Assembly (NCBI GenBank): GCA_947630975.1
Contig: CANRJP010000001.1
Location: forward strand, 18,712-82,711
Length of the DNA stretch: 64,000 nucleotides
Direction of reading: 5' to 3'
From: an uncultured Clostridia bacterium
Lineage (GTDB): Bacteria; Bacillota; Clostridia; UMGS1883
Positions 2,757-62,721 of this stretch are shown here, piece by piece. The translations under genes and the position numbers were made by a program. Below the pieces are notes generated by a model. That model ran no database searches. It was not told the DNA's origin and was given only the letters and a program-made list of their open reading frames with translations. Position 1 is the stretch's first letter; each line of letters begins with the position of its first letter.

Positions 2757-5700
2757 TCACGCCAGCCTCGGGGCCGGACGCTTCCGGCTCATGCTGTCAA
2801 ACTCGTCCGCTATCGCCTCTTTCACCCATTCCTTGACCCTGCGGGCCAAATCCCGATCGCTTGAGCTTCCGCCGTTGATCGTGAGGTTGAATGTGGGCGA
2901 ATAGTTATTTGTCTCGGACGAGCTGCTGTTCACGGTGGAATAGCCGCCGCCGGACTCCGGCGTGTAGTTCTGGGAATATGGGATAGCCATCTCGCCGGCG
3001 GCTTGAGCCGTATCTCGCATTTGCGGCATGGTTTTTTCCATACCGATTATGCCGCCCTCGATGAGGAATTGGCCTTTTTCCTGCCATACCTTGGAGGGCG
3101 AGCTGATTTTTTGTACCTTGTTGAACTCCGCGTTGACTGCGGTGGCCACGCCGCGAGCCGCTGCCACGGCGGCGGCCTTTCGGGAGTTTATACCGTTGAC
3201 AAGGCCGTTTATCATGTTGGCCCCGGCGGAGGAAAGATTTACCGCGCTGACGGCGGCTATTATCTGGCTTAGTCCGTTTTGCACCGCCGACAGGCAGGCC
3301 GCCATGCCGCTTGTAACGGACGTGGTTATCTCGGTCAGCTTGGCCGTTACCGTCTGCGAGGCCGTGCCCATGGCCGTATCGAAGACCTGCGGAATCTGCC
3401 CCACGGCGGTCTGGGTCTCGGCGACAAAGCTGTTCACCGCGCCGCTCGCCGCCGCAAGTCCGCTCTGGTCTACGGTCAGGTTTACGGCCACATCCTGCGC
3501 TCCGCCCAACTCCGTAAGTCCGGCGTTGAAGCCGCTGCTGAAGTTCATGGCCGAGTTTGTGCCCACGGAAGCAAAGTCTATTCCCATATCGCCAACGTCA
3601 ACGCTGGGAATATTTAAGTCGCCAAAAGTTCCGGAAAGAGAAGATTTCAGGTCGTTGGCCGACGCCTCAACAGAACCCTTGCCATTTTCAATTCCTTTTG
3701 CTACTCCGCTCGAAATTTTTTCACCGGCGGCCTCTGCGACTCCTCCGTCCAGCGAATCCGCGAATCCGCTTAGTCCGTCCGCCGCCTTTTTGAATACGCC
3801 GCCCACTTTATCGCCTATCCAGCTAAGAGCGCTCTTTATGCCGCTGAGTATTTTTTGCAGCGGTTCACAGTTCTTTACCCAGTCCACTATGCCGCTGATA
3901 AATTCTCCTATTTTGCCGACCACCCAGCCGATTATTCGTCCGAGGGAGTCGATGATTGTGCGGAAGGTCTCGCTTTTGTTGTAAGCGATTATAAGCACGG
4001 CGACAAGAGCGACAATGCTGGCTACTATCCGTGTTATGGGGCAAAGCAGCAGGCCCGAGTTAAGCGCCCACTGCGCGGCCGTTTCTATGGCCGTAGCTGC
4101 GGCGGCCAGTTTCTGAGCCGTTACAACAGCCATTATCGAGCCCGCCACAAAACCAAGAATAGGCAAAATGCTGTCCATGTTTTTGCCGAGGAACGCGAAA
4201 ACGCCCGAGGCCAGATTTAGCAGACCGCCGATCAGCGGCCCGGCGGCGGATATTATACCGCCGACAAAATCTCTGACGCCCGAGGCGAAGCCGACTATAC
4301 CGTCAAGAACGTTCTCAGCGGCATTTTGAATTGACGAAAACATTCCCTCCGGCATGGGCTGGCCCACTATCATTTCATACATTCCGCTGACAGCGGTCAT
4401 AACCACATCTTTTATCGCGGATAATAGTTCCGGCCCGTTTGCCTTGATAACGGCGGCGCCGGATTTAAACATCATAACCAGGCCGTTCGCAAAAGACTTT
4501 GCCAATGTGGGCGCAAGTTTTATCAGCGATTTGCCGAGAACAGATATTGCCATTGCCGCGAAATTCATAAAATAAGGCAAATACTTATTCAGTCCGGCTA
4601 TGCCTTTATCGGCCAAAGTTTCGACAGTATTTGCAATATCGCCAATATCCGAATCCTGGAAGCCGTCGCTCATAATATCGTTTAACGACGATAGCGTATC
4701 CGTAAACATTCCCAATAGGGAAACATATTTGCCTGAAAATACCGCGCCGATTTTTTCCTTGAGATCGCCGAACAAATTGTTCATCTGGGCCAGTTTGCCG
4801 GTAGGAGTATTGACAAAGCTTTCGGCCATTCCGCCCCAGCTTTCACCGATAATTTCCTGAATGGCGGCCACTTTTTCCATATCGGTGCCGGTTGTCAGGA
4901 TCTTTTTCTGCGCTTTAGTGACGACAAATCCCTTTTTGGTCATGGCGTCATAAGCGCCGGTGGTCATTTTAGCCAGATTTGTAGTGTAATCGACGATTTC
5001 CTGAGTGGAAAGAGCCGTTCCCCCGCTCATACCGGCGGCGTAATCGGTCACGGTTTTCATGAGGCCTTTAATCGCTTCGGGGTCGGTGAAGTAGGTCGCG
5101 GCTTCGGCGGCCGCGCCGATCATGGCCTCATCGCCGTACATGGTGACTTTTTGCAGTTCTCCGGCATAGTCTTTTATGCTGTTTATTGCCTCATCGGATA
5201 TCCCCATATTTTTAGCGGTGGTCGCCAACTGTGTTTCCATTGCCGTTTGTTCTCCCAGCACCGTCATACAGTTGTTTATCCCCGCTATTGCCGCCGCTGT
5301 GCCGCCGGTCAGGGCGCCTATGCCGACTTTTGCCGCCGTCTTTATTCCCTTGCCGAGAGCGCCGGACACCTTTTTTATCCCTGATGTCAGCTTTTCAAAT
5401 TTCTGGCTTGCCGCCTCCTTTAAAGCGACGGCCCAGTCCTTGGTTTTACTCCAGGCCTCCTTGATAGAGGAACCGACACCTTTAAATTTTTTCCCGCTGT
5501 CTTTCACTTTTTCGGAGGATTGATTTAATCCTCCCAGCTCTTCCTTGGCTTTGTCGGCTTCTTTTGCAATATTCTCAATGCCTTTTGCTGCCCCTTTTAT
5601 TCCTTCAACGCCCGCCGCGGCCTTCTTCGCCGTGTCTTTTATTTTGTCAAGGCCGCCTTCGGCTCCGGTGACAGAGGCCTTCAGCTTATCCATTTCAGCC

Positions 5701-5774
5701 GTGACTTTCGACAGCGGATTGTCGGCTATCTCAAAGCTGATTTTGACAACGTCCTCGCGTACAACGTTCGCCAT
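2757..5774 (-). CDS. phage tail tape measure protein
   Basis: 1005-aa ORF, coiled-coil/Ala-Gly-rich. Contains a hydrophobic TM-like stretch (ITRIVASIVALVAVLIIAY). Sits between the tail assembly chaperone and the LysM/baseplate genes. Confidence 0.8.
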   Translation of the reverse strand: MANVVREDVVKISFEIADNPLSKVTAEMDKLKASVTGAEGGLDKIKDTAKKAAAGVEGIKGAAKGIENIAKEADKAKEELGGLNQSSEKVKDSGKKFKGVGSSIKEAWSKTKDWAVALKEAASQKFEKLTSGIKKVSGALGKGIKTAAKVGIGALTGGTAAAIAGINNCMTVLGEQTAMETQLATTAKNMGISDEAINSIKDYAGELQKVTMYGDEAMIGAAAEAATYFTDPEAIKGLMKTVTDYAAGMSGGTALSTQEIVDYTTNLAKMTTGAYDAMTKKGFVVTKAQKKILTTGTDMEKVAAIQEIIGESWGGMAESFVNTPTGKLAQMNNLFGDLKEKIGAVFSGKYVSLLGMFTDTLSSLNDIMSDGFQDSDIGDIANTVETLADKGIAGLNKYLPYFMNFAAMAISVLGKSLIKLAPTLAKSFANGLVMMFKSGAAVIKANGPELLSAIKDVVMTAVSGMYEMIVGQPMPEGMFSSIQNAAENVLDGIVGFASGVRDFVGGIISAAGPLIGGLLNLASGVFAFLGKNMDSILPILGFVAGSIMAVVTAQKLAAAATAIETAAQWALNSGLLLCPITRIVASIVALVAVLIIAYNKSETFRTIIDSLGRIIGWVVGKIGEFISGIVDWVKNCEPLQKILSGIKSALSWIGDKVGGVFKKAADGLSGFADSLDGGVAEAAGEKISSGVAKGIENGKGSVEASANDLKSSLSGTFGDLNIPSVDVGDMGIDFASVGTNSAMNFSSGFNAGLTELGGAQDVAVNLTVDQSGLAAASGAVNSFVAETQTAVGQIPQVFDTAMGTASQTVTAKLTEITTSVTSGMAACLSAVQNGLSQIIAAVSAVNLSSAGANMINGLVNGINSRKAAAVAAARGVATAVNAEFNKVQKISSPSKVWQEKGQFLIEGGIIGMEKTMPQMRDTAQAAGEMAIPYSQNYTPESGGGYSTVNSSSSETNNYSPTFNLTINGGSSSDRDLARRVKEWVKEAIADEFDSMSRKRPAPRLA

Positions 5775-5932: not shown

Positions 5933-6238
5933 TTACGCCTTACTCTTTCCTTCAGCCTTGCCCGCGTCAGCTTCAGGCCGAAAATTACCCTGCATTACCT
6001 CGGTGCCGAAGCGCACAACCTCGTTGAGTTCGTCAGCGGAGTCAAAGTCGTCGGGGGTGAGGCCGCCGGGCTCCACAATGACGTTTTTCAGCACGTAGGC
6101 CGCCATCTTTTCAATGCTGGTGGTGTTTGTGCCGGGGATGTATGTCTCGTCCACGCTTTTCAGCGCGGCGGAAATGCCGTTGAACTGTGCGGTGTATTTT
6201 TTGCCGTTGATTTCTTTATCAACAGTGTAAAATTTCAT
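5933..6238 (-). CDS. phage tail assembly chaperone (XkdN-like); possible -1/+1 frameshift extension to ~5791
   Basis: 101-aa ORF between tail tube and tape measure. An alternative frame continues past its stop (…ERVRRNWACW…MAAKMMKKKK*) and ends 17 bp before the TMP start. This is the canonical G/GT chaperone arrangement. Confidence 0.5.
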   Translation of the reverse strand: MKFYTVDKEINGKKYTAQFNGISAALKSVDETYIPGTNTTSIEKMAAYVLKNVIVEPGGLTPDDFDSADELNEVVRFGTEVMQGNFRPEADAGKAEGKSKA

Positions 6239-6284
6239 GATTGCATATCTCCTTTTAATTTTAATTTTTTAGATAACGGTGAGT

Positions 6285-6607
6285 GGGCTGTAAAAAAACT
6301 TACTATGTAATCTGGAGGCACGGGGGCCGGTCGAAAAAATCGTGCAGAACGGACGAAAATCAGCTCTCGCAGGCGACAGGCGAAGCCTGCCGCCGAGAAA
6401 GCCCTCCCGACGGCGTACATAGGTACGCCAAGGGTGATTTTCGTTCGTAGTTCAAGGGCATAAAAATGAGAAAATTCGCTCGCAAGGGCGAATTTTTTAC
6501 ATTATGCAATTATTTTTATATTTATCGACTTATATTATAACACTCATATTTGCCTTAAATAAGTCATTCAGCCCTTGAACGGTCTGCGCGACTTTTTTTA
6601 CGGCCCC
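6285..6607. repeat. MITE-like TIR element, copy 1 (~323 bp, non-coding)
   Basis: Ends gggctgtaaaaaaa… and …agcccttgaacggtctgcgcgactttttttacggcccc. Its reverse complement aligns over ~180 bp plus ~60 bp at the far end with 45677-46216, and its ends match the 36-bp TIRs of 59937-60130. Fills the gap between the tail tube stop (6618) and chaperone start (6238). Confidence 0.75.
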
Positions 6608-6617
6608 CTCAATTCGG

Positions 6618-7019
6618 TTATATCGCTTCCGTCACGCCGTCAAACACCATGATGGTGAACTCCAGATCCTCAGCCTCGGCGCCCTGGCTGATCTCGGGGG
6701 CCTCCTGAATGGCGCCCTGTTCGCCGCCGTGTCTCAGGCCAAGCTCCTTGTTTATGCACCATACGGGGAAGTTATCCTTCCGTCCCTCAAGGCTGAGGAG
6801 ATACCCCAGCTGAGGGCTTGTGGGCTGAACGGAGAGGGTAAGGGTGTGGATGTTGTTGTTTATCTCGCTCTTGATGATGTCGCCCTGAGCGCCCACCACA
6901 GGCTCAAAGAAGGATTCCTCCTTGGCCCAGGTTATCATGTCCTCGCCCACGCCGGTAATGTACACGCCGCCGATCATTATGGTACAGTCTTTGGCGTTAT
7001 ATCTTGTAATGCGTTCCAT
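6618..7019 (-). CDS. phage tail tube protein (XkdM-like)
   Basis: 133-aa ORF immediately downstream of the sheath gene, in PBSX-like sheath-tube-chaperone-TMP order. Confidence 0.6.
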   Translation of the reverse strand: MERITRYNAKDCTIMIGGVYITGVGEDMITWAKEESFFEPVVGAQGDIIKSEINNNIHTLTLSVQPTSPQLGYLLSLEGRKDNFPVWCINKELGLRHGGEQGAIQEAPEISQGAEAEDLEFTIMVFDGVTEAI

Positions 7020-7037: not shown

Positions 7038-8105
7038 TTATATAACGGCCTCGCCGATTATGGTTGCCTCATGGATTGCTCCGGCAAGGTCGAAGCTGAA
7101 GCTGCCGTAGGGATACTTGCGGACCAGCCGGTCGTCGGGCGAGGTCTGCTCCCTGAGTACGAAGCTGGTACTGTACGCGGGCTTACCGTCCTCGCCGACG
7201 GCGATTATACCGTTGTTCCAAGCGTCCTTGAGAGCGCCCAGGGTGGCGCTTTCCAGCATGGCGATGCCGTTGTTGTCATAGGGCACCTTGGGCGAATTGT
7301 TCAGTACCTTCTGGGAACGGTAGGCTATATTCTGGATGGTGTAGTCCAGACCGTCCACCACGTCGATATACTCGCCGCCCACGGTCTTGCCCTCGGTGGT
7401 CACAATGTCCCCGGCCTTGGTCACAAGGCTCTGCGCTCCGGCGGCGTGGATCGTCTCGATCTCGGTGTCCGACAAATCCAGCGGGGGAACTCCCTTGATG
7501 ATCATGTTCTTGTAGGTGAATCCCCCGGCCTTGAGACCGGCGGTTGCGCCCACCACAGCAGCCGCCAGATATACGCTTTCATCGGGATAGTACCAGATGT
7601 TGGTGTAGTCACAGCCCGTCAGCTTGAGGCCGTCGATGGTTGTTTTAAGGCTCTTTATCTCGCCGGAAATCTGGGCGAACAGCATCCTGTCCTTTACGGT
7701 TTCGTAGTGCTCCGCCACCGCTTTCCAAGCCTCGGTTTCAGCGCCGGGCATTACGGTCTGCCGCCAGCCGCCCATCTTTCTCAGGTCGTCGATGCCGTCG
7801 GCGGTCGGGGTCTCCTCGTAAAGACCGACGGCAAATTTCTCGGGAATGTCGTCCTGAGTGAGCATTATCTTTGCCGCCTTGTAGACCGCGCTCTCGGTCA
7901 CCGTTCCGCTCTCCCCGTCGCTCTTGACGAAGCCCGCGTCCCGCAGCTCCTCAAGGTTGCGGAACTCGCCGTAAACGAAGTCGCCCAAGGCCTCGGTGTC
8001 AAGTCCCTCGTCTCCGGTTTTGTTCCCATAAATCAGCGGGAACCAGCTCCCCGGCCTGCCCGTGGGCTTCGCCAGGTCGATTTTTACTTTTACGTCCAAT
8101 GCCAT
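7038..8105 (-). CDS. phage tail sheath protein
   Basis: 355-aa ORF preceding the tube gene. Sequence resembles contractile-tail sheath proteins (e.g. IGEAVI C-terminus). A strong antisense ORF (6729-8126 +) is an artefact. Confidence 0.65.
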   Translation of the reverse strand: MALDVKVKIDLAKPTGRPGSWFPLIYGNKTGDEGLDTEALGDFVYGEFRNLEELRDAGFVKSDGESGTVTESAVYKAAKIMLTQDDIPEKFAVGLYEETPTADGIDDLRKMGGWRQTVMPGAETEAWKAVAEHYETVKDRMLFAQISGEIKSLKTTIDGLKLTGCDYTNIWYYPDESVYLAAAVVGATAGLKAGGFTYKNMIIKGVPPLDLSDTEIETIHAAGAQSLVTKAGDIVTTEGKTVGGEYIDVVDGLDYTIQNIAYRSQKVLNNSPKVPYDNNGIAMLESATLGALKDAWNNGIIAVGEDGKPAYSTSFVLREQTSPDDRLVRKYPYGSFSFDLAGAIHEATIIGEAVI

Positions 8106-9554: not shown

Positions 9555-9736
9555 GGGGATTTCATCTCCTAATTCCTAATTCTCCTGCCCGCCCTGCGGG
9601 TCACTAAAGGCTCACCGCTTACGGGTTCGCATTTTATGCGACAGTTTAAATGTATCAGGTCGCAAGTTAGTCGCAAGATTATAACCTACCCATCGACCAA
9701 CCATGACGGGCCCCCACTATTCCTAATTCCTCATTC

Positions 9737-10108
9737 CTAATTCCTAATTTTCCTCCATCCGCTTCGGGCCGTGCGGAACTTCACGTCCGATACGATGTCG
9801 CCGCCCAGCAGGCTTTTCAGCAGCTCCCACAGCAGGGCCGTCCTGTCCCTGTCAGAAAACGACTGGGACAGGTGGCCGCTTATGCTTTCGCTGGTCACGC
9901 CCGCCGTTACGCCCATGATTTCCACAAACTTCACCGCGAACAGCCGGACTCTGGCGGGAAGCTCCGCCAGCTCCTCGTCGCTGTTCAGGTCGAATTTAAG
10001 CCGTGTGTTCTCCAGCACGTACTGAAGGGCGGCCTCCACCATGAGCACGGTCTCCGGCGTTATGGGGTCAAGACCCAGATTTAAGGCCTTGACCTGCTCC
10101 TCGGTCAC
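9737..10108 (-). CDS. phage head-tail connector/adaptor (gp6-like)
   Basis: 123-aa ORF directly downstream of the major capsid gene (4-bp overlap). Size and position are typical of a head-tail adaptor. Confidence 0.5.
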   Translation of the reverse strand: MTEEQVKALNLGLDPITPETVLMVEAALQYVLENTRLKFDLNSDEELAELPARVRLFAVKFVEIMGVTAGVTSESISGHLSQSFSDRDRTALLWELLKSLLGGDIVSDVKFRTARSGWRKIRN

Positions 10109-12169: not shown

Positions 12170-12598
12170 GATTCATTCCTCCATGTAGAAAAAATTTCAC
12201 CCTCCGTATAGAAAGGTTAAACAAATTGAACTCCTTCCGCCAATGAGGTAAAAAACATCAAAAACACGGGCGTGTACCGGGTTTTTGATACCTCAATCGG
12301 GGTAGGAAATTTGTCCGCGGACAAATTTCCGTAAGCGAAAGCGCCCGATGCGGAAAGGGGGCACGCGGGGAAAACCGCTCGGGTTGTCCCCGCGAGAGCG
12401 CTGTCAGCGCTCCTACCTTCCGTATAGAAAGGCATAAAAAAACGCCCACCGTATAGATGAGCGTAATATGTAATTTTTTATACTAATCCATAATTAAAAT
12501 CAGACACCGAGATGGCGCGGAAAAGGCCGTCGCAAATGTCTGATTTTAGTTGGGGATTAGTATTATGGACACAGTTTAGCGACCTGTCCGGGTCGGGC

Positions 12599-12922: not shown

Positions 12923-13128
12923 ATTTTCCTCCGTGCAAAAAGCACGCTGCTAAACGCATCAAAAAAGCACTCTCGAAGTAAGAGTGCTTAATTATAGCTA
13001 AAATGGACTTTGGCGGGCGTCGCGTCTCCCGCATCTCTCGGGTTTCCCCTGTCATGCCATCGGCGTGTGGTCGCAACGAAATTTACCACCTCAAAGTCCA
13101 TCTTTAGCTCACTTATATTATACCACAA

Positions 13129-13647
13129 TTATTTGTTTTTGTAAAGTATCTTTTTGTTATTTATATAATTTTTCCAGCGCCGTTCACTAATTTTCCATGC
13201 AGATATTATCGAATTTTTATATCCTTCCACATCTGAAGTCGTATGTAAACGTAAAATCACTTGAAATGTCAAATTTTCAGCTTTAATGCTTTTTAAAATC
13301 AATGCTGAATTTTTCTTGTCCTCAAGAATATAATCCGGCTTCTCAACCGCAAGTTTTAAGAAAGGTTCAATTATTTCAAAATGACCCGGATGGCGTTCCT
13401 CAATATGAGCTATTCGTTCCTCGGTAATGATAACTTCATCTGTAGTTATATTGTCAGCAACACACTTATACAAATCCTTGTCTATACTACCAATGAACCT
13501 CACATTTCCTCCCGCCGTTTCATCCTTAGTTGTCTTTATTATACCACTTTCCGCAGGTTTGTCAAGAGTTTTTTCATTTGCGGGCTTGTCAATGACCACT
13601 TTATCAAAATGCCGCCCCGTGGCTTTAAAAAATTCCTCATCGCTCAT
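13129..13647 (-). CDS. orphan polymorphic-toxin C-terminal cassette (uncharacterised toxin domain)
   Basis: Begins MSDEEFFKATGRHF. The full-length MuF toxin (13898-15361) has M-NDEEFFKATGRHF at its MuF/C-terminal-domain junction (residues 300-314), and the following ~158 aa are unrelated. This is the classic orphan-module architecture. Confidence 0.5.
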   Translation of the reverse strand: MSDEEFFKATGRHFDKVVIDKPANEKTLDKPAESGIIKTTKDETAGGNVRFIGSIDKDLYKCVADNITTDEVIITEERIAHIEERHPGHFEIIEPFLKLAVEKPDYILEDKKNSALILKSIKAENLTFQVILRLHTTSDVEGYKNSIISAWKISERRWKNYINNKKILYKNK

Positions 13648-13701
13648 TAGCTTTTAAAAGCACGTCCGAAAACGTGCTTTTTTATTCGGTTGGTTGGTAC
13701 A

Positions 13702-13914: not shown

Positions 13915-15361
13915 TAAAATAACCGCCCTTCTTCCATTGTAGTTCAGGATATGCCGCTTTCACACGTTTTATAATAAGCTTCTTCTCGGCAACCGTCAAT
14001 TCATTTCTGCCTTCATAGTGCATTTTTTCAGCTAAAAAACAATTTACCTCCGCCCATTGACAGTAACCCATATCGTATTTATGATGTGTAATTTCATGTA
14101 CAACAGCTTGCGCTGCATTCTTCTCATTTTTCGTGTTAGAAACAAAAATTTTTATAACATCGCCTTGTTGCACACCACGATTGGTATGAGGTTGCGGCTC
14201 ATAAATAAGCTGGGGTCTTATGCCGGTCTGTTGAATGTATTCCAGCGTCTCTCGTCCAATTGGCGTTGTTTCAAGATTATCAGCTATTTTCTGAGGGGTT
14301 ATTTCAACATTTTCGTCAATATTCTCATATTGGAAAATGTCTTCGGCTCTTGCATAATTTATTATATCACTTTTCCCCGATTTGTCAATAGGGAAATGCC
14401 GCCCCGTGGCCTTAAAAAACTCCTCGTCATTCATTAGTTTGTACTGGACGAAGCAGCGGCAGTTGATGTCCTGACTTGCCACGCCGCTTTTACCGGGGCA
14501 GTCGGCCATGCTACCGTCGGAGAGAGTGAACTGCTCATCGGCCAGCACCGTCACGCCCTCCATCATTTGATGGTCGGCCTTGCCGCCCACATAGGTTTTC
14601 CAGCCGTGCTTGGTCTTGACACGGTGATTGGGCCGGACGCGCTCGTCCTTCATGGTGCGCCATATCTTCACCATCCGCAAATCCGCGCCGCTCTCTCGCA
14701 GCCCCTCGTCCAGACGGGCCGCCGAATCGTACATACCGGCCTCCCGCACTCTGTGTGTCTCGGTGCGGGCTATCCTCACGGCCTTTTTGTAATCGCCCTC
14801 CACGCGGCCGGCGATCCGCCCGGCCATGGTCTCGATGCGGTCGCCGTTGGTCAGTCCGGTCATGATGTCCCGCTTTATATCATACACCACCTGACGGCGG
14901 TTCCGTTCCAGACGGGCGTTAAGCGTCAGACCGGCAATGGGATTTTCCACCGCCTGCTTTATCACCTCCGGCGTCACCGTGGGAACGCCTTTCAGCGCCC
15001 GCTTAAGCTCCGCCGTATCAGCGGCCCGTTCCACCGCCGCCGCCGTGTCCCTGTATGCCCGCTCGTAGGTCTCCGCCGCCAGCTCGGCGATGAGCTGCTT
15101 CGCCCGTGGGCTTACGCCGTCCAGCCGCCGCTGTATCTCCTCAAGAAATCCGGCGTAGCGGTTCTCCCGCATCAGGGCCTCGAAGGTCAGACGCCCGTCG
15201 ACGGCCATGTCGGCGTATTCCGTGCCAAGGAACATCTTAAGCTCCTTTATCAGCTCACGGTACAGCCGCCTCAGCTCTTTTTCCGCGCCCTGCTCCCGGT
15301 GCTCCGCTATGCGTCTGAGCTGCACCAGCGCCCGCTGAAGCTCCTTATCGTTAACGGCCAT
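13898..15361 (-). CDS. phage head morphogenesis protein, MuF/SPP1 gp7 family, fused to a C-terminal HExxH toxin-like domain (MuF polymorphic toxin)
   Basis: Residues ~1-299 carry MuF motifs (RIARTETHRV…DERVRPNHR…NCRCF) and the gene lies directly downstream of the portal. The C-terminal 173 aa are an extra domain containing HEITHH (HExxH). Confidence 0.7.
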   Translation of the reverse strand: MAVNDKELQRALVQLRRIAEHREQGAEKELRRLYRELIKELKMFLGTEYADMAVDGRLTFEALMRENRYAGFLEEIQRRLDGVSPRAKQLIAELAAETYERAYRDTAAAVERAADTAELKRALKGVPTVTPEVIKQAVENPIAGLTLNARLERNRRQVVYDIKRDIMTGLTNGDRIETMAGRIAGRVEGDYKKAVRIARTETHRVREAGMYDSAARLDEGLRESGADLRMVKIWRTMKDERVRPNHRVKTKHGWKTYVGGKADHQMMEGVTVLADEQFTLSDGSMADCPGKSGVASQDINCRCFVQYKLMNDEEFFKATGRHFPIDKSGKSDIINYARAEDIFQYENIDENVEITPQKIADNLETTPIGRETLEYIQQTGIRPQLIYEPQPHTNRGVQQGDVIKIFVSNTKNEKNAAQAVVHEITHHKYDMGYCQWAEVNCFLAEKMHYEGRNELTVAEKKLIIKRVKAAYPELQWKKGGYFNGKKF

Positions 15362-45676: not shown

Positions 45677-46216
45677 GCTGTATGTAGAAAAGTCGCGCAG
45701 ATCGTTCAAGGGTTGAATGACTTAATTTAAGGCAAATTTGAATGTTATGTAACCAATCATTAAAAATAAAATAATTGCATAATGTAGAAAATTCGCCCTT
45801 ACGAGCGAATTTTCTTATTTTTATGCCCTTGAACTACGAACGAAAATCACCCTCGGCGGCGTCGGGGCAAAGCCCGTCTATGCTCCGACATTTTTTCAAA
45901 AATGCCGTCGCACGAGGGCTTGCCCCTCCTTCTTCGCAAAAGGTCACGCGGCGCTCCGGCTATTCGGGCGGATAAGCCGCCCTCATTACGCCTGCGCTTG
46001 CTACCAACCTTTTGCGAGTTTTACGCCACCACTCCCCACAAACAACAAAGTTGTTTGTGGGGAAAAGGAGGAGCAGCCGAACGAGCCAAACGATGACTTT
46101 TTTGCAAAGCATAAAAAGTCGCCGCAAGCGAAGGGAGGCTTGCGACGACGCCGTTCTGCACGATTTTTTCGACCGACCCCGCGCTTCCAGGCTACAGAGT
46201 GAGTTTTTTTCTATCC
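45677..46216. repeat. MITE-like TIR element, copy 2 (~540 bp, inverted relative to copy 1)
   Basis: Both ends align with the reverse complement of copy 1. The longer, divergent middle contains the hairpin ccccacaaacaac-aaa-gttgtttgtgggg. Lies between the convergent araC-family and nth genes. Confidence 0.7.
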
Positions 46217-55050: not shown

Positions 55051-55126
55051 GCCGGCGTAGCTCAGTTGGTAGAGCAGCTGATTTGTAATCAGCAGGTCGT
55101 AGGTTCGAGTCCTATTGCCGGCTCCA
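55051..55126 (+). tRNA. tRNA-Thr (anticodon TGT)
   Basis: Cloverleaf: acceptor gccggcg/tgccggc, D-arm gctcagttggtagagc, anticodon stem gctga/tcagc with loop ttTGTaa, T-arm gtaggttcgagtcctat, and encoded CCA. Confidence 0.85.
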
Positions 55127-55144
55127 CTTTACTTAACTTAATAT

Positions 55145-55229
55145 GGAGGAGTTCCCGAGCGGCCAAAGGGGGCAGACTGTAAATCTGTTGTCACTGACTT
55201 CGGTGGTCCGAATCCACCCTCCTCCACCA
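55145..55229 (+). tRNA. tRNA-Tyr (anticodon GTA), class II with long variable arm
   Basis: Acceptor ggaggag/ctcctcc, anticodon loop ctGTAaa, long variable arm tgtcactgacttcggtggt, T-arm ggtgg-tccgaat-ccacc, and encoded CCA. Confidence 0.85.
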
Positions 55230-59872: not shown

Positions 59873-59915
59873 TGGACAATTAAATACCGCCCAATAGTAA
59901 AACCAATATTGCACT

Positions 59916-60130
59916 CACTATGTAACCTTGAGGCACGGGGCTGTAAAAAAATGGCGCAGACCGTTCAAGGGCTGTATATGGTTTGATTTAAGGCATTTTA
60001 AGTATTGAAAAATAAAACGTTAAAAGTTAAATAGCTGTCAATTAATGTGGAAAAACCGCCGTTTTTTGAAACGGCGATTTTTCTTTTATCTTATGCCCTT
60101 GAACGGTCTGCGCCATTTTTTTACAGCCCC
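59916..60130. repeat. MITE-like TIR element, copy 3 (minimal ~215-bp unit with perfect 36-bp TIRs)
   Basis: 59937-59972 ggggctgtaaaaaaatggcgcagaccgttcaagggc is the exact reverse complement of 60095-60130. The leader cactatgtaaccttgaggcac matches copy 1. Internal hairpin ccgccgtttttt-gaaacggcg. Located between convergent genes. Confidence 0.8.
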
Positions 60131-61209
60131 TATTCCTCCATCATCTGATTTACGGTGCGTATAATACCGGCGGTTATGCCCTCGGCGACGGCGCTCTGTC
60201 CCTCGGCGCTGACCAGATAGGCCCTGTCGCTGTCGTTGCTGAGATAGGCCGTCTCCACACGCACCGCCGGCTGGCGTGTCATGCGGACGACGTAGAGGGT
60301 GGAGCCGTCATGCACCTGAGCGCCCTGAAGGTCGGAATGAGCCAAAATTTCGTTATATATGTTCTGTGCAAGGATAGTGCCGTACATGGAATCCGGGTCA
60401 TAATAGACCTGGGTTCCGTTGGCGGAGGTGTCGTCAAACGAGTTACAGTGTATGCTTACAAAAACCGCCGGAACGGCGCCGCTGGCGGTGGGACGGTTGG
60501 CTATGTCCACGCGCCCCTGTGACGAGACCTGATAATCGGACTCACGGGTCATTATCACGTTGTATCCCGCCGCCGTCAGATTGTCGCTGACTCTCATGGC
60601 GATGGCGAGCGAAATTTCGTCCTCGGTGACTCCGGCATAGTTCGCTCCGGTGCCGCCGCCGTTCCCCGGGTCGATAACTACCGAGCCGTAGTCAAAGGCG
60701 ACGGTGTTTGTGGTGTCCACCGTGCCGGAGGTGTCCAGATGCACCATATCCGCGCCCATATGGGGATCGTTCATGGTAACGGCGCCCGTGGCTGCATCCC
60801 AGCCCACCTCATAGCCTATCAAGTCGGCTATCTGACGGATGTGAACCACCGTTTTGCCGTCTATTAGCATGGGGGTGGGTTCATCTTCGGGTATAACGCG
60901 GGGCTGACCGTTGACATACAGATTTCTGCCGCCAAGAGTGAAGAGCAGTTCTTTTCCGTCAAAATACACCTTGGCCTGATTTGTTTCGGTAATCCAGACA
61001 ACGGTGCCGCCGATGGCCTCGAAAAATTCTCTGATGGGCACCATGGTGCGCTCGTTGTAAAGAACCGGCGGCTGTTCAAAATATATGGGCCAGCCGTTGA
61101 CGCTGATATTTACGTCGGCGAAGGCCGCCGGAGCGCTCAGTGTCAGGGCCGCCGCCGTCACGGCGGCTATAATTCTTTTCTTTTTCATGTTATCGCTCGA
61201 ACCTTTCAA
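60130..61209 (-). CDS. N-acetylmuramoyl-L-alanine amidase (Amidase_3) with N-terminal stalk domains
   Basis: Signal peptide. Amidase_3 motifs (DPGNGGGTGA…E…IMTRESD…VFVSIHCNSFDD…AYLSND). Confidence 0.75.
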   Translation of the reverse strand: MKGSSDNMKKKRIIAAVTAAALTLSAPAAFADVNISVNGWPIYFEQPPVLYNERTMVPIREFFEAIGGTVVWITETNQAKVYFDGKELLFTLGGRNLYVNGQPRVIPEDEPTPMLIDGKTVVHIRQIADLIGYEVGWDAATGAVTMNDPHMGADMVHLDTSGTVDTTNTVAFDYGSVVIDPGNGGGTGANYAGVTEDEISLAIAMRVSDNLTAAGYNVIMTRESDYQVSSQGRVDIANRPTASGAVPAVFVSIHCNSFDDTSANGTQVYYDPDSMYGTILAQNIYNEILAHSDLQGAQVHDGSTLYVVRMTRQPAVRVETAYLSNDSDRAYLVSAEGQSAVAEGITAGIIRTVNQMMEE

Positions 61210-61212
61210 ACA

Positions 61213-62721
61213 TCAGACAAGACCTCTGTCTTGCATCATCTGCTGAACCGTCTTTATTATACCCGCCGTAATTCCGTTGGCCAGGGCTTCCTGTCCTTCC
61301 TCGCTGGTGAGGTATGCCCGGTCGCTGTCGTTGCTGATAAAGGCCGTTTCGACCAACGCGGCAGGCTGAACGGTCTTGCGAACCACGTACAAATCGGAGC
61401 CGTCTCTTATCCTCGAACCCTTGAGCGTCGTATTGGCCACGTCAGCGTCATATATGTTCTGGGCCAAGATAGTGCCGTAATGGGACTCCGTATGGTAGTA
61501 CACCTGGGTGCCGTTGGTGGATGGATCGTCGAAGGAATTGCAGTGTATGCTGACGAAAACAACGGGTATGGCATTGCCGTTAGTGGGCCGGCTGGCAATA
61601 TCCACCCGGCTTTGAAGAGAGACCTTGACATCCGATGTACGGGTCATAACCACGTTATATCCCGCCGCCGTCAGCTTGTCCCTTACCTTCAAAGCGATGG
61701 CGAGAGTTATGTGATCCTCCATTATGCCGCCGGAGGAAGCGCCGGTATAGCCGCCGTGGCCGGCGTCGATGACTACGGAGCCGTAGTCGTACTCCGCATC
61801 CGTGACCGCGTTGGCGCCGCCTGCGCTTACAATGACGGACGTCTGTTGGGGAATGCTGTCCACAAAGGCCGTGGGGTCAAAATATGCCCCGTTCCGTAAA
61901 TCGTCCGTAGAGGTGACGGCGCCGCCCTGATCCGCCGGAGAGACGGCGATAACTATGCCCGTCTCGGTGCGGCTCAGCAGCACGTTTGGCTGATTTCTGA
62001 CGTCGAGCACTATACGGGCCGTATTTTCATGGTTGGCGCAGCGGACGGAGATAACGTTCGCCCCGTTCACACTGTACTCGCTGTAATCCTCCGTCAGCTT
62101 GGTATTCGGAAAATCCAGCACCACTCTGTCGGGAGAGCCGTAGCGGTTCACCGTGGGCTCCGCCGGACTGTCATAGGCCAGATAAACCATGTCCGCCCTG
62201 TCCACCGTGGCGGGTACGATCTTTGAGATATAACCGCCGCCGAAGGGACTTGTGAGGGTGGCCGCGCCGGAATTTCCGTCCCAGCCAACGTCAAAACCGA
62301 GTTTTTCGGCTATGAGCCGCATGGGAGCCATGAGCTCACCGTTGATCACAATGGGAGCGGGCTCATCGGCGGGCAGGCTGTCGAGCTCGCCGTTCACATA
62401 TATGCTCCGGCTGTCAGCCGTAAGCTGAAGCGTTCTGCCGCCGTAGCTTATCAAAAAACCGTCGGCGCCGCTCAAGCCGGTCACGGAACAGCCCACGGCC
62501 TCGAAAAACTCCCTGACGGGCACAAAGGTCTTTTCGTTCAAAACGATTGGGGGCATTTTATTTGTAACAATTTTTCTTCCGTCAACAAGTATATTTATAT
62601 CGTCCGCACTGTAGCGGTGCGTCTCTCCGCCGTAAACGAGATCCATCTCCCGCCCGAAGGCCGTGGCCGCCGTAAGCAGCATGGCGGCCGTAACAGCGAA
62701 AATCACAGCTAAACGCCGCAT
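61213..62721 (-). CDS. N-acetylmuramoyl-L-alanine amidase (Amidase_3) paralogue with extended stalk region
   Basis: C-terminal half near-identical in motif layout to 60130-61209 (VVFVSIHCNSFDD, MTRTSD, AFISNDSDRAYL). N-terminal half has additional stalk repeats. Confidence 0.75.
   Translation of the reverse strand: MRRLAVIFAVTAAMLLTAATAFGREMDLVYGGETHRYSADDINILVDGRKIVTNKMPPIVLNEKTFVPVREFFEAVGCSVTGLSGADGFLISYGGRTLQLTADSRSIYVNGELDSLPADEPAPIVINGELMAPMRLIAEKLGFDVGWDGNSGAATLTSPFGGGYISKIVPATVDRADMVYLAYDSPAEPTVNRYGSPDRVVLDFPNTKLTEDYSEYSVNGANVISVRCANHENTARIVLDVRNQPNVLLSRTETGIVIAVSPADQGGAVTSTDDLRNGAYFDPTAFVDSIPQQTSVIVSAGGANAVTDAEYDYGSVVIDAGHGGYTGASSGGIMEDHITLAIALKVRDKLTAAGYNVVMTRTSDVKVSLQSRVDIASRPTNGNAIPVVFVSIHCNSFDDPSTNGTQVYYHTESHYGTILAQNIYDADVANTTLKGSRIRDGSDLYVVRKTVQPAALVETAFISNDSDRAYLTSEEGQEALANGITAGIIKTVQQMMQDRGLV

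Follow-up and report, generated by a model that had tools for sequence, protein, structure and literature searches.

The 323-bp non-coding element between the tail tube gene and the following gene of a prophage contractile-tail operon belongs to a non-autonomous, non-coding palindromic repeat family that has proliferated within one narrow clade of uncultured Clostridia from the gut. As judged from alignment with close prophage relatives, it entered the prophage secondarily, at the exact place of an ancestral GC-rich stem-loop. The best explanation overall, which we regard as probably correct, is that a palindromic repeat of the host clade inserted in the prophage, replaced the native stem-loop and acts in cis. 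We refer to the whole 64,000-nt stretch of DNA that was analysed as the window, and to its three members of the family as copies A (in the tail operon), B and C.

The minus strand of the window over 1-10 kb encodes the contractile-tail module of the prophage, where PHROG matches around the spacer back sheath, tube, tail terminator, TMP and baseplate hub. The spacer between the tube gene and the 101-aa ORF that follows it is 379 bp long, and consists of the element and two native remnants:

7038-8105, minus strand: sheath gene (phrog_205)
6618-7019, minus strand: tail tube gene, 133 aa (phrog_280, E=8e-23; placed between sheath and TMP)
6607-6617, minus strand: native spacer remnant 3′ of the tube stop codon (aligned with L105 3403-3413)
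6239-6283, minus strand: native spacer remnant before the 101-aa gene (aligned with L105 3437-3475)
5933-6238, minus strand: 101-aa gene between tube and tape measure (phrog_1778, function unknown), a putative tail assembly chaperone assigned by position only
2757-5774, minus strand: TMP gene (PHROG match)

Several other features of the prophage were recorded. At 13005-13099 on the minus strand is a skipping-rope RNA (Rfam RF02924), which scored 51.7 bits where the gathering score is 36.7; a TGGTATAAT box is immediately upstream on the same strand. Short tandem runs of 3-5 units of the heptamer AGGAAT(G/T)(A/T), Shine-Dalgarno-like in appearance, occupy three spacers between phage structural genes on the minus strand (2718-2753, 9567-9600 and 9718-9753). 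A 50-nt direct repeat (13607-13656 and 14394-14443, 86% identical) is found at the apparent starts of two adjacent, probably paralogous, minus-strand genes, and an AT-rich phage spacer contains a possible operator or terminator, a 27-nt inverted repeat (12480-12506 / 12537-12563, 89%, arms 30 nt apart).

Empty alleles of the site were found by a search for homologues of the tube protein, in which P0001 (98% identity) led to six contigs (L105-L110) carrying the same prophage in six assemblies, including GCA_947626145.1 (MAG Lapin-008__bin63). Positions 450-3413 of L105 align with window 9570-6607 at 95.5% nucleotide identity over 2964 bp (blastn); homology is then lost between window 6607 and 6262, and resumes at L105 3452, equivalent to window 6262. 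Gene order around the 101-aa gene is the same in L105, and the tube-chaperone spacer in L105-L110 measures 73 bp. By hand alignment, the empty site of L105 reads ...TAACCGAGTTGAGG[AGTGAGGTGTCCGTGCCTCACTC]CTCTCCATTATCT..., and the filled site, on the minus strand of the window, reads ...TAACCGAATTGAGG[323-bp element, 6606 down to 6284]CTCACCGTTATCT.... Folding of the empty spacer gives a hairpin with a 12-bp stem (-25.5 kcal/mol, z = -5.1) and no U-tract. The element stands in for the inner stem and loop of this native hairpin, leaving its outer GAGG...CTC: the last bases of the remnant at 6607-6617 are GAGG, once the outermost 4 nt in the left arm of the hairpin that was lost, and the remnant at 6239-6283 is intact, with CTCACCGTTATCT, an A-rich stretch and the ribosome-binding site AAAGGAG. 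Both the ribosome-binding site and the start codon of the 101-aa gene are preserved beside the element, and no bases are duplicated, leaving no target-site duplication at this filled/empty site. More distant relatives likewise lack the element. L111, whose tube is 80% identical, has a GC-rich short hairpin spacer (GAGGGGGC-GAAA-GCCCCCTC), as does the IMG/VR contig L103 (66%). The preliminary description had taken tube and chaperone genes to be normally adjacent; in these relatives a GC-rich hairpin separates them, and it is this hairpin that the element replaced.

Within the spacer, a 323-bp non-coding element with inverted-repeat ends had been placed at 6285-6607, and the nhmmer match of copy A to the family profile has exactly these limits (E=3.6e-94). 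The limits of the foreign DNA given below (6284-6606) come from blastn against L105 and hand alignment, and are ambiguous by a few bases. The parts of copy A, whose plus strand is antisense to the tail operon, are as follows:

6284-6606, plus strand: copy A, 'A-type', 323 bp, foreign by comparison with the empty prophage allele
6285-6298, plus strand: outer left terminal repeat GGGCTGTAAAAAAA, which pairs with 6593-6606 and is conserved at family termini
6299-6321, plus strand: 23-nt conserved 'leader' CTTACTATGTAATCTGGAGGCAC, a motif in all three window copies
6322-6352, plus strand: internal left arm (IRL′), imperfect complement of the right arm 6571-6606
6349-6448, plus strand: structured module, with a long closing stem ACGAAAATCA/TGATTTTCGT, two hairpins and a three-way junction
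6450-6459, plus strand: left half of the core stem GTTCAAGGGC, which pairs with 6571-6580 (100% complementary)
6461-6496, minus strand: internal intrinsic-terminator-like hairpin from a terminator scan, with stem 6496-6471 and U-rich tail CTCATTTTTA
6497-6570, no strand assigned: AT-rich spacer, poorly conserved in the family conservation profile
6571-6606, plus strand: right arm (IRR) GCCCTTGAACGGTCTGCGCGACTTTTTTTACGGCCC, the family signature by conservation and shared motif

The terminal inverted repeat of copy A extends over 6280-6298 / 6593-6611 (19 nt, 89%), with several nested ones inside, and its left arm is interrupted and imperfect. The U-rich tail CTCATTTTTA of the internal hairpin is on the strand transcribed for the tail operon. 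Upstream of this terminator, also on the operon's sense strand, copy A has a strong extended -10 (TGTTATAAT, minus strand, 6542-6534) that is private to it. The only ORFs of copy A are 55-61 aa long, and family indels of many lengths cross them. One of these, a 61-aa ORF at 6235-6420, had been called spurious and said to lie entirely within the element; it is indeed not conserved, since family members differ there by indels of many lengths, but it starts outside the element and overlaps it.

Two further copies are present in the window, where a shared 18-mer (CCCTTGAACGGTCTGCGC) occurs 4 times against an expectation of 0.05:

45683-46216, minus strand: copy B, 'B-type', about 534 bp, with ends as in copy A and a larger structured module of about 300 nt
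59912-60130, plus strand: copy C, leader and minimal palindromic body, between convergent genes

Copy B sits between convergent nth and AraC-family genes. The copy at 45.7 kb had been described as matching the reverse complement of copy A base-for-base over ~240 bp. The length holds (about 233 bp), but the match is in two pieces (172 bp at 89% and 61 bp at 87%, BLAST) that flank a different, larger centre in copy B, and this larger central module rules out a base-for-base correspondence. The module of copy B (45850-46150, ~300 nt) is hairpin-rich, with compensatory change between copies and CCTCCTTTTCC and AAGGAGGGG motifs, and has no Rfam match. Copy C has a perfect 36-nt inverted repeat (59937-59972 / 60095-60130, arms 122 nt apart) and a body inverted relative to most family members. 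Synteny beside copies B and C differs in the relatives L044 and L035, so the precise empty-site comparison is that of copy A. In the same part of the window, two adjacent tRNA genes were found by Rfam at 55051-55226 (plus strand), and copy C abuts the stop codon of the first of two tandem paralogous genes for N-acetylmuramoyl-L-alanine amidases with Cu_amine_oxidN1 domains (60130-61209 and 61213-62721, minus strand; ~70% identical in DNA).

The family extends well beyond the window. A genome scan with a 19-mer core gave at least 98 loci, 80 of which were listed, and six rabbit-gut 'uncultured Clostridia' MAGs, each with at least 7-16 loci, account for about 85% of the 80. Among the matches listed, one is in a Hadza MAG, which the family profile did not confirm, one is in an Oscillospiraceae MAG, and the rest are chance matches in unrelated phyla. 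The window's own genome is not among the matches listed, and the best chromosomal synteny is 80-84% identical. A search for further copies had been proposed, and dozens were found in related genomes: a profile built from 26 copies recovers 46 full-length elements, together with many partial or variant ones. The family has one general order, in which an outer left repeat (GGGGCTGTAAAAAAA) is followed by a 23-nt leader (CTCACTATGTAAYCTGGAGGCAC), also present as a motif in 38 elements of related genomes, and then by the internal left arm. One fixed point then holds nothing (minimal or 'C-type'), a module of ~95 nt ('A-type', as in copy A) or a module of ~300 nt ('B-type', as in copy B). Located 3′ of this point are the 10-bp core stem, the terminator-like hairpin, the variable AT-rich stretch and the 36-nt right arm. 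Members of this modular family range from ~200 to ~540 bp. Neither the INPHARED phages nor the PLSDB plasmids had a BLAST match to the spacer or the element, two exact motifs gave 0 matches in IMG/VR and 0 in JGI metagenomes, and Rfam searches (the whole window at gathering score, copies A and B to E 10) returned nothing relevant to the element, whose best sub-threshold match (E=0.1) scored under half the gathering score.

Folding of copy A is exceptionally stable relative to shuffles on both strands, at -139.9 kcal/mol (z = -9.2) on the element's plus strand and -131.2 kcal/mol (z = -7.9) on its minus strand. In an RNAalifold consensus of 46 copies, the internal left arm pairs with the right arm (alignment columns 46-72 with 369-394), the module is closed as a three-way junction and the core stem is paired (194-203/357-366). 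The module (6349-6448 in copy A) is the most conserved part of the family, with columns at least 95% conserved; the right arm is conserved to the same degree and the AT-rich stretch drifts, which points to constraint and not just to recent copying. In the module, 99.1% of cells are paired, a level reached by 0 of 500 shuffles and compared with 28-47% in slid controls. Six pairs carry a change in both partners, among them U-A to C-G (14 copies) and G-C to U-A (10 copies), and this covariation rests on few independent events. Cells with G·U outnumber those with A·C by 95:4 in the arms (8 pairs against 1) and by 36:6 in the module. Such an excess identifies the element's plus strand as the folding strand, as RNA or as single-stranded DNA, and the bias could be partly inherited from a master copy. 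The three-way-junction module and the strand-biased G·U together suggest that it is in the form of a folded single strand, either RNA or ssDNA, that the element acts or is recognised. In the internal hairpin, at least 4 different stem sequences all preserve the stem, so that structure is conserved and not sequence, and the A-rich run that precedes it on the plus strand supplies a canonical U-tail on the minus strand. No conserved sigma-70 promoter was found in the family on either strand. A pseudoknot between leader and module, proposed by eye from GGAGG/CCUCC pairing, was rejected, being without covariation support.

Copies of the family sit mostly at gene 3′ ends, in places where relatives have ordinary stem-loops. 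With the strands of flanking genes called by GC phase, 36 copies were callable on both sides: 18 are between convergent genes, 15 between tandem genes (9 in one orientation and 6 in the other) and 3 between divergent genes. The replacement seen in the prophage has chromosomal parallels. In L096, a B-type copy in sense orientation (2855-3373) takes the exact position of a hairpin present in the sister species L098 and in L079, with a TGGTATAAT box before it and the T-run and ribosome-binding site of a parB/noc-like gene after it; in L010, an element follows an orthologous gene where L078 and L068 have ordinary terminator hairpins. The leader of that parB/noc-like gene in L098 (3680-3740), with its TGGTATAAT box, hairpin, T-run and ribosome-binding site, is itself attenuator-like in appearance. 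One orthologous convergent spacer holds three different repeat forms, in both orientations, in three species (L073 5898-6208, L096 7222-7672, L098 7556-7713), which suggests a hot spot, or else copies that were remodelled and inverted where they lie.

Among 25 copies, searched with movable boundaries, direct repeats of 4-9 bp are no commoner than in shuffled flanks. Flanking bases extend the palindrome by a mean of 1.76 nt, against 0.70 in shuffles (shuffle maximum 1.44), with A making up 46% of the left flank and T 54% of the right. The autonomous transposase-encoding partner that had been envisaged was found neither between paired arms nor near elements at the 98 loci. Paired arms in L003 and L029 enclose only housekeeping genes, namely those for FtsK, GreA, a YcdB-repeat protein and the like, and all-against-all clustering of 1165 ORFs from the 98 loci revealed no multi-copy ORF family, the largest clusters having at most 3 members that look like orthologues across MAGs. 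Mobility is therefore deduced from presence/absence and copy number only. The term MITE-like fits in size, non-coding nature, inverted repeats, copy number and insertion polymorphism, but, with no target-site duplication, it holds only in a loose sense.

We entertain one more far-reaching model, which we consider doubtful: that the family is a structure-dependent mobile element homing to terminator or attenuator hairpins and replacing them without target duplication by way of a folded single strand, with the three-way-junction module as its recognition or catalytic part. If true, the family would transpose by a new route, or would be a 'portable terminator/RNA module' that spreads itself and can travel between hosts in a phage.

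It is also possible, if unlikely, that the family is a structured ncRNA gene or module copied around the genome, with copy A giving an RNA from the window's plus strand, antisense to the tail operon, that would work independently, perhaps as antisense regulator, protein sponge or ribozyme-like element. The conservation of the module next to a drifting AT-rich spacer, the compensatory changes in its helices and the great excess of G·U over A·C on the plus strand would all fit such an RNA. The family nevertheless has no conserved promoter on either strand, no match to an Rfam family even at E up to 10 and no orientation bias relative to the flanking genes that would supply transcription; its minimal members lack the module altogether, and single-stranded DNA explains strand-biased folding equally well.

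It is improbable that the element is an inverton, in which a recombinase would flip the segment between the inverted repeats, turn a terminator or promoter on and off and make tail-gene expression phase-variable. The perfect inverted repeat of copy C, the opposite orientations seen at one orthologous intergenic site in different species and the asymmetry of the internal terminator would fit such a switch, and the body is inverted relative to the leader in copy C and in the rearranged L043, though not in L014, L028, L044 or L077. Against a switch, half of the copies are between convergent genes, where there is nothing to switch, no promoter is conserved, no recombinase gene adjoins copies A, B or C, the copy C locus is oriented alike in the second assembly (the only other one), and the left arm of copy A is interrupted and imperfect.

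It is scarcely credible that the element is native, conserved regulatory DNA of the tail operon with chromosomal copies that are coincidental or phage-derived: relatives too have a regulatory-looking hairpin at this position, but the 95.5%-identical prophage (six assemblies), L111 and L103 lack the element, INPHARED and IMG/VR hold no matches, and dozens of chromosomal copies lie beside housekeeping genes, so that this reading is already contradicted. The contrary expectation, of a recent mobile or duplicated sequence, is what the comparison bears out; had it been wrong, related phages should all carry the sequence with no copies elsewhere, and the opposite was observed. An assembly error that misplaced a repeat in the prophage contig can be dismissed with as much assurance: short contigs of this phage, recovered from four further samples (L099-L102, reached by exact-protein look-ups), do break inside the element, but their junctions, on the tube side in L099 and on the chaperone side in L100-L102, are identical to those of the window in independent assemblies. 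Absence from close prophage relatives and dozens of copies elsewhere make the element a multi-copy, TIR-bearing insertion from the host repeat pool.

Returning to the insertion of a host-clade repeat that acts in cis, we can outline what it would do in the tail operon. Since the minus strand of copy A is the operon's sense strand, an RNA transcribed past the tube gene would include first the right arm, next the internal hairpin and its U-rich tail (6496-6461), and last the remainder of the fold. On the tail-operon mRNA the element would fold into a very stable long hairpin, and its internal terminator-like hairpin would present a U-tail in sense orientation. It would thereby be a cis substitute for the native stem-loop, and probably a stronger one, which may shield the sheath/tube message at its 3′ end and reduce read-through into the chaperone, TMP and baseplate genes. 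The attenuation point would fall between the abundant sheath and tube genes and the low-copy chaperone, TMP and baseplate genes. An attenuator role is plausible, its concrete basis being the internal terminator-like hairpin with a U-tail on the operon's sense strand: a GC-containing stem-loop (6496-6471) followed by the U-tract CTCATTTTTA has the pattern of an intrinsic terminator and is predicted to be one. Two points temper this model. As the native hairpin has no U-tract, a 'replacement of function' assumes that the native hairpin mattered, and the lack of orientation bias in tandem contexts (9 versus 6) argues against a strong one-directional terminator effect under selection. The same folded single strand could underlie the family's spread.

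In its workings the element is like a MITE or an ERIC/BOX-type intergenic palindrome. The Correia (CREE) elements of Neisseria are small, non-coding, multi-copy and intergenic and bear terminal inverted repeats; they can be co-transcribed with their neighbours, and their long hairpins affect mRNA. The present family is built alike, but differs from such bacterial MITEs in that no target-site duplication or autonomous partner was seen, a pre-existing stem-loop was replaced where DNA would otherwise simply be interrupted, and an internal three-way-junction module is conserved. ERIC/IRU and the pneumococcal BOX/RUP elements are modular, imperfect palindromes of transcribed intergenic regions, in which longer forms arise by insertion at fixed internal sites and RNA structure is kept by compensatory change. 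The minimal, A-type and B-type forms described here likewise differ by a module at one fixed site. The present family has no sequence relationship to these elements, however, its host clade is one of uncultured Clostridia, and near-identical prophages with and without the element show recent mobility. REP/REPIN and IS200/IS605-derived palindrome-associated elements are found at gene 3′ ends, are handled as folded single-strand hairpins and leave no target duplication. A single-strand intermediate of this kind fits the strand-biased G·U seen here, but the present element is much larger, has true long terminal inverted repeats, and no RAYT/TnpA-like gene was identified in the element loci covered.

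The GGGG...AAG shape of the arm suggested an affinity to Tn3 or TIME elements, as the 36-nt arm has the GGGG start and ...AAG end that we take to resemble Tn3-family inverted repeats. TIMEs also have long terminal repeats starting GGGG, of 38 nt compared with 36 nt here. Membership was nonetheless ruled out, because TIMEs, whose inverted repeats are common to Tn3-family transposons, need target duplications of 5-6 bp (PMC4133298); here there is no duplication, and no Tn3-like gene was seen. For the proposed effect on expression, the closest comparison is with the internal terminators that control ABC-transporter stoichiometry in Clostridia, as described in PMC9045158. The likeness is that low-copy genes follow a highly expressed structural gene with a stem-loop in between; the difference is that here a mobile repeat which displaced the native hairpin would supply the stem-loop function.

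The family described here is new, is of an ordinary kind and has a few unusual features. It replaces one hairpin by another, leaves no target duplication and has a structurally constrained module, and these three features make it of interest to work on bacterial repeats and structured RNA; in kind, it remains an intergenic palindromic repeat. The insertion links this phage with the clade of its host, and none of the other phage records searched carries the element. Related samples contain this tail operon both with and without the insert, a natural experiment in which the effect of the insert on the tube-to-chaperone/TMP expression ratio and on phage viability would be directly measurable. The prophage also illustrates the entry of a host repeat into a phage genome, by which such elements might spread.
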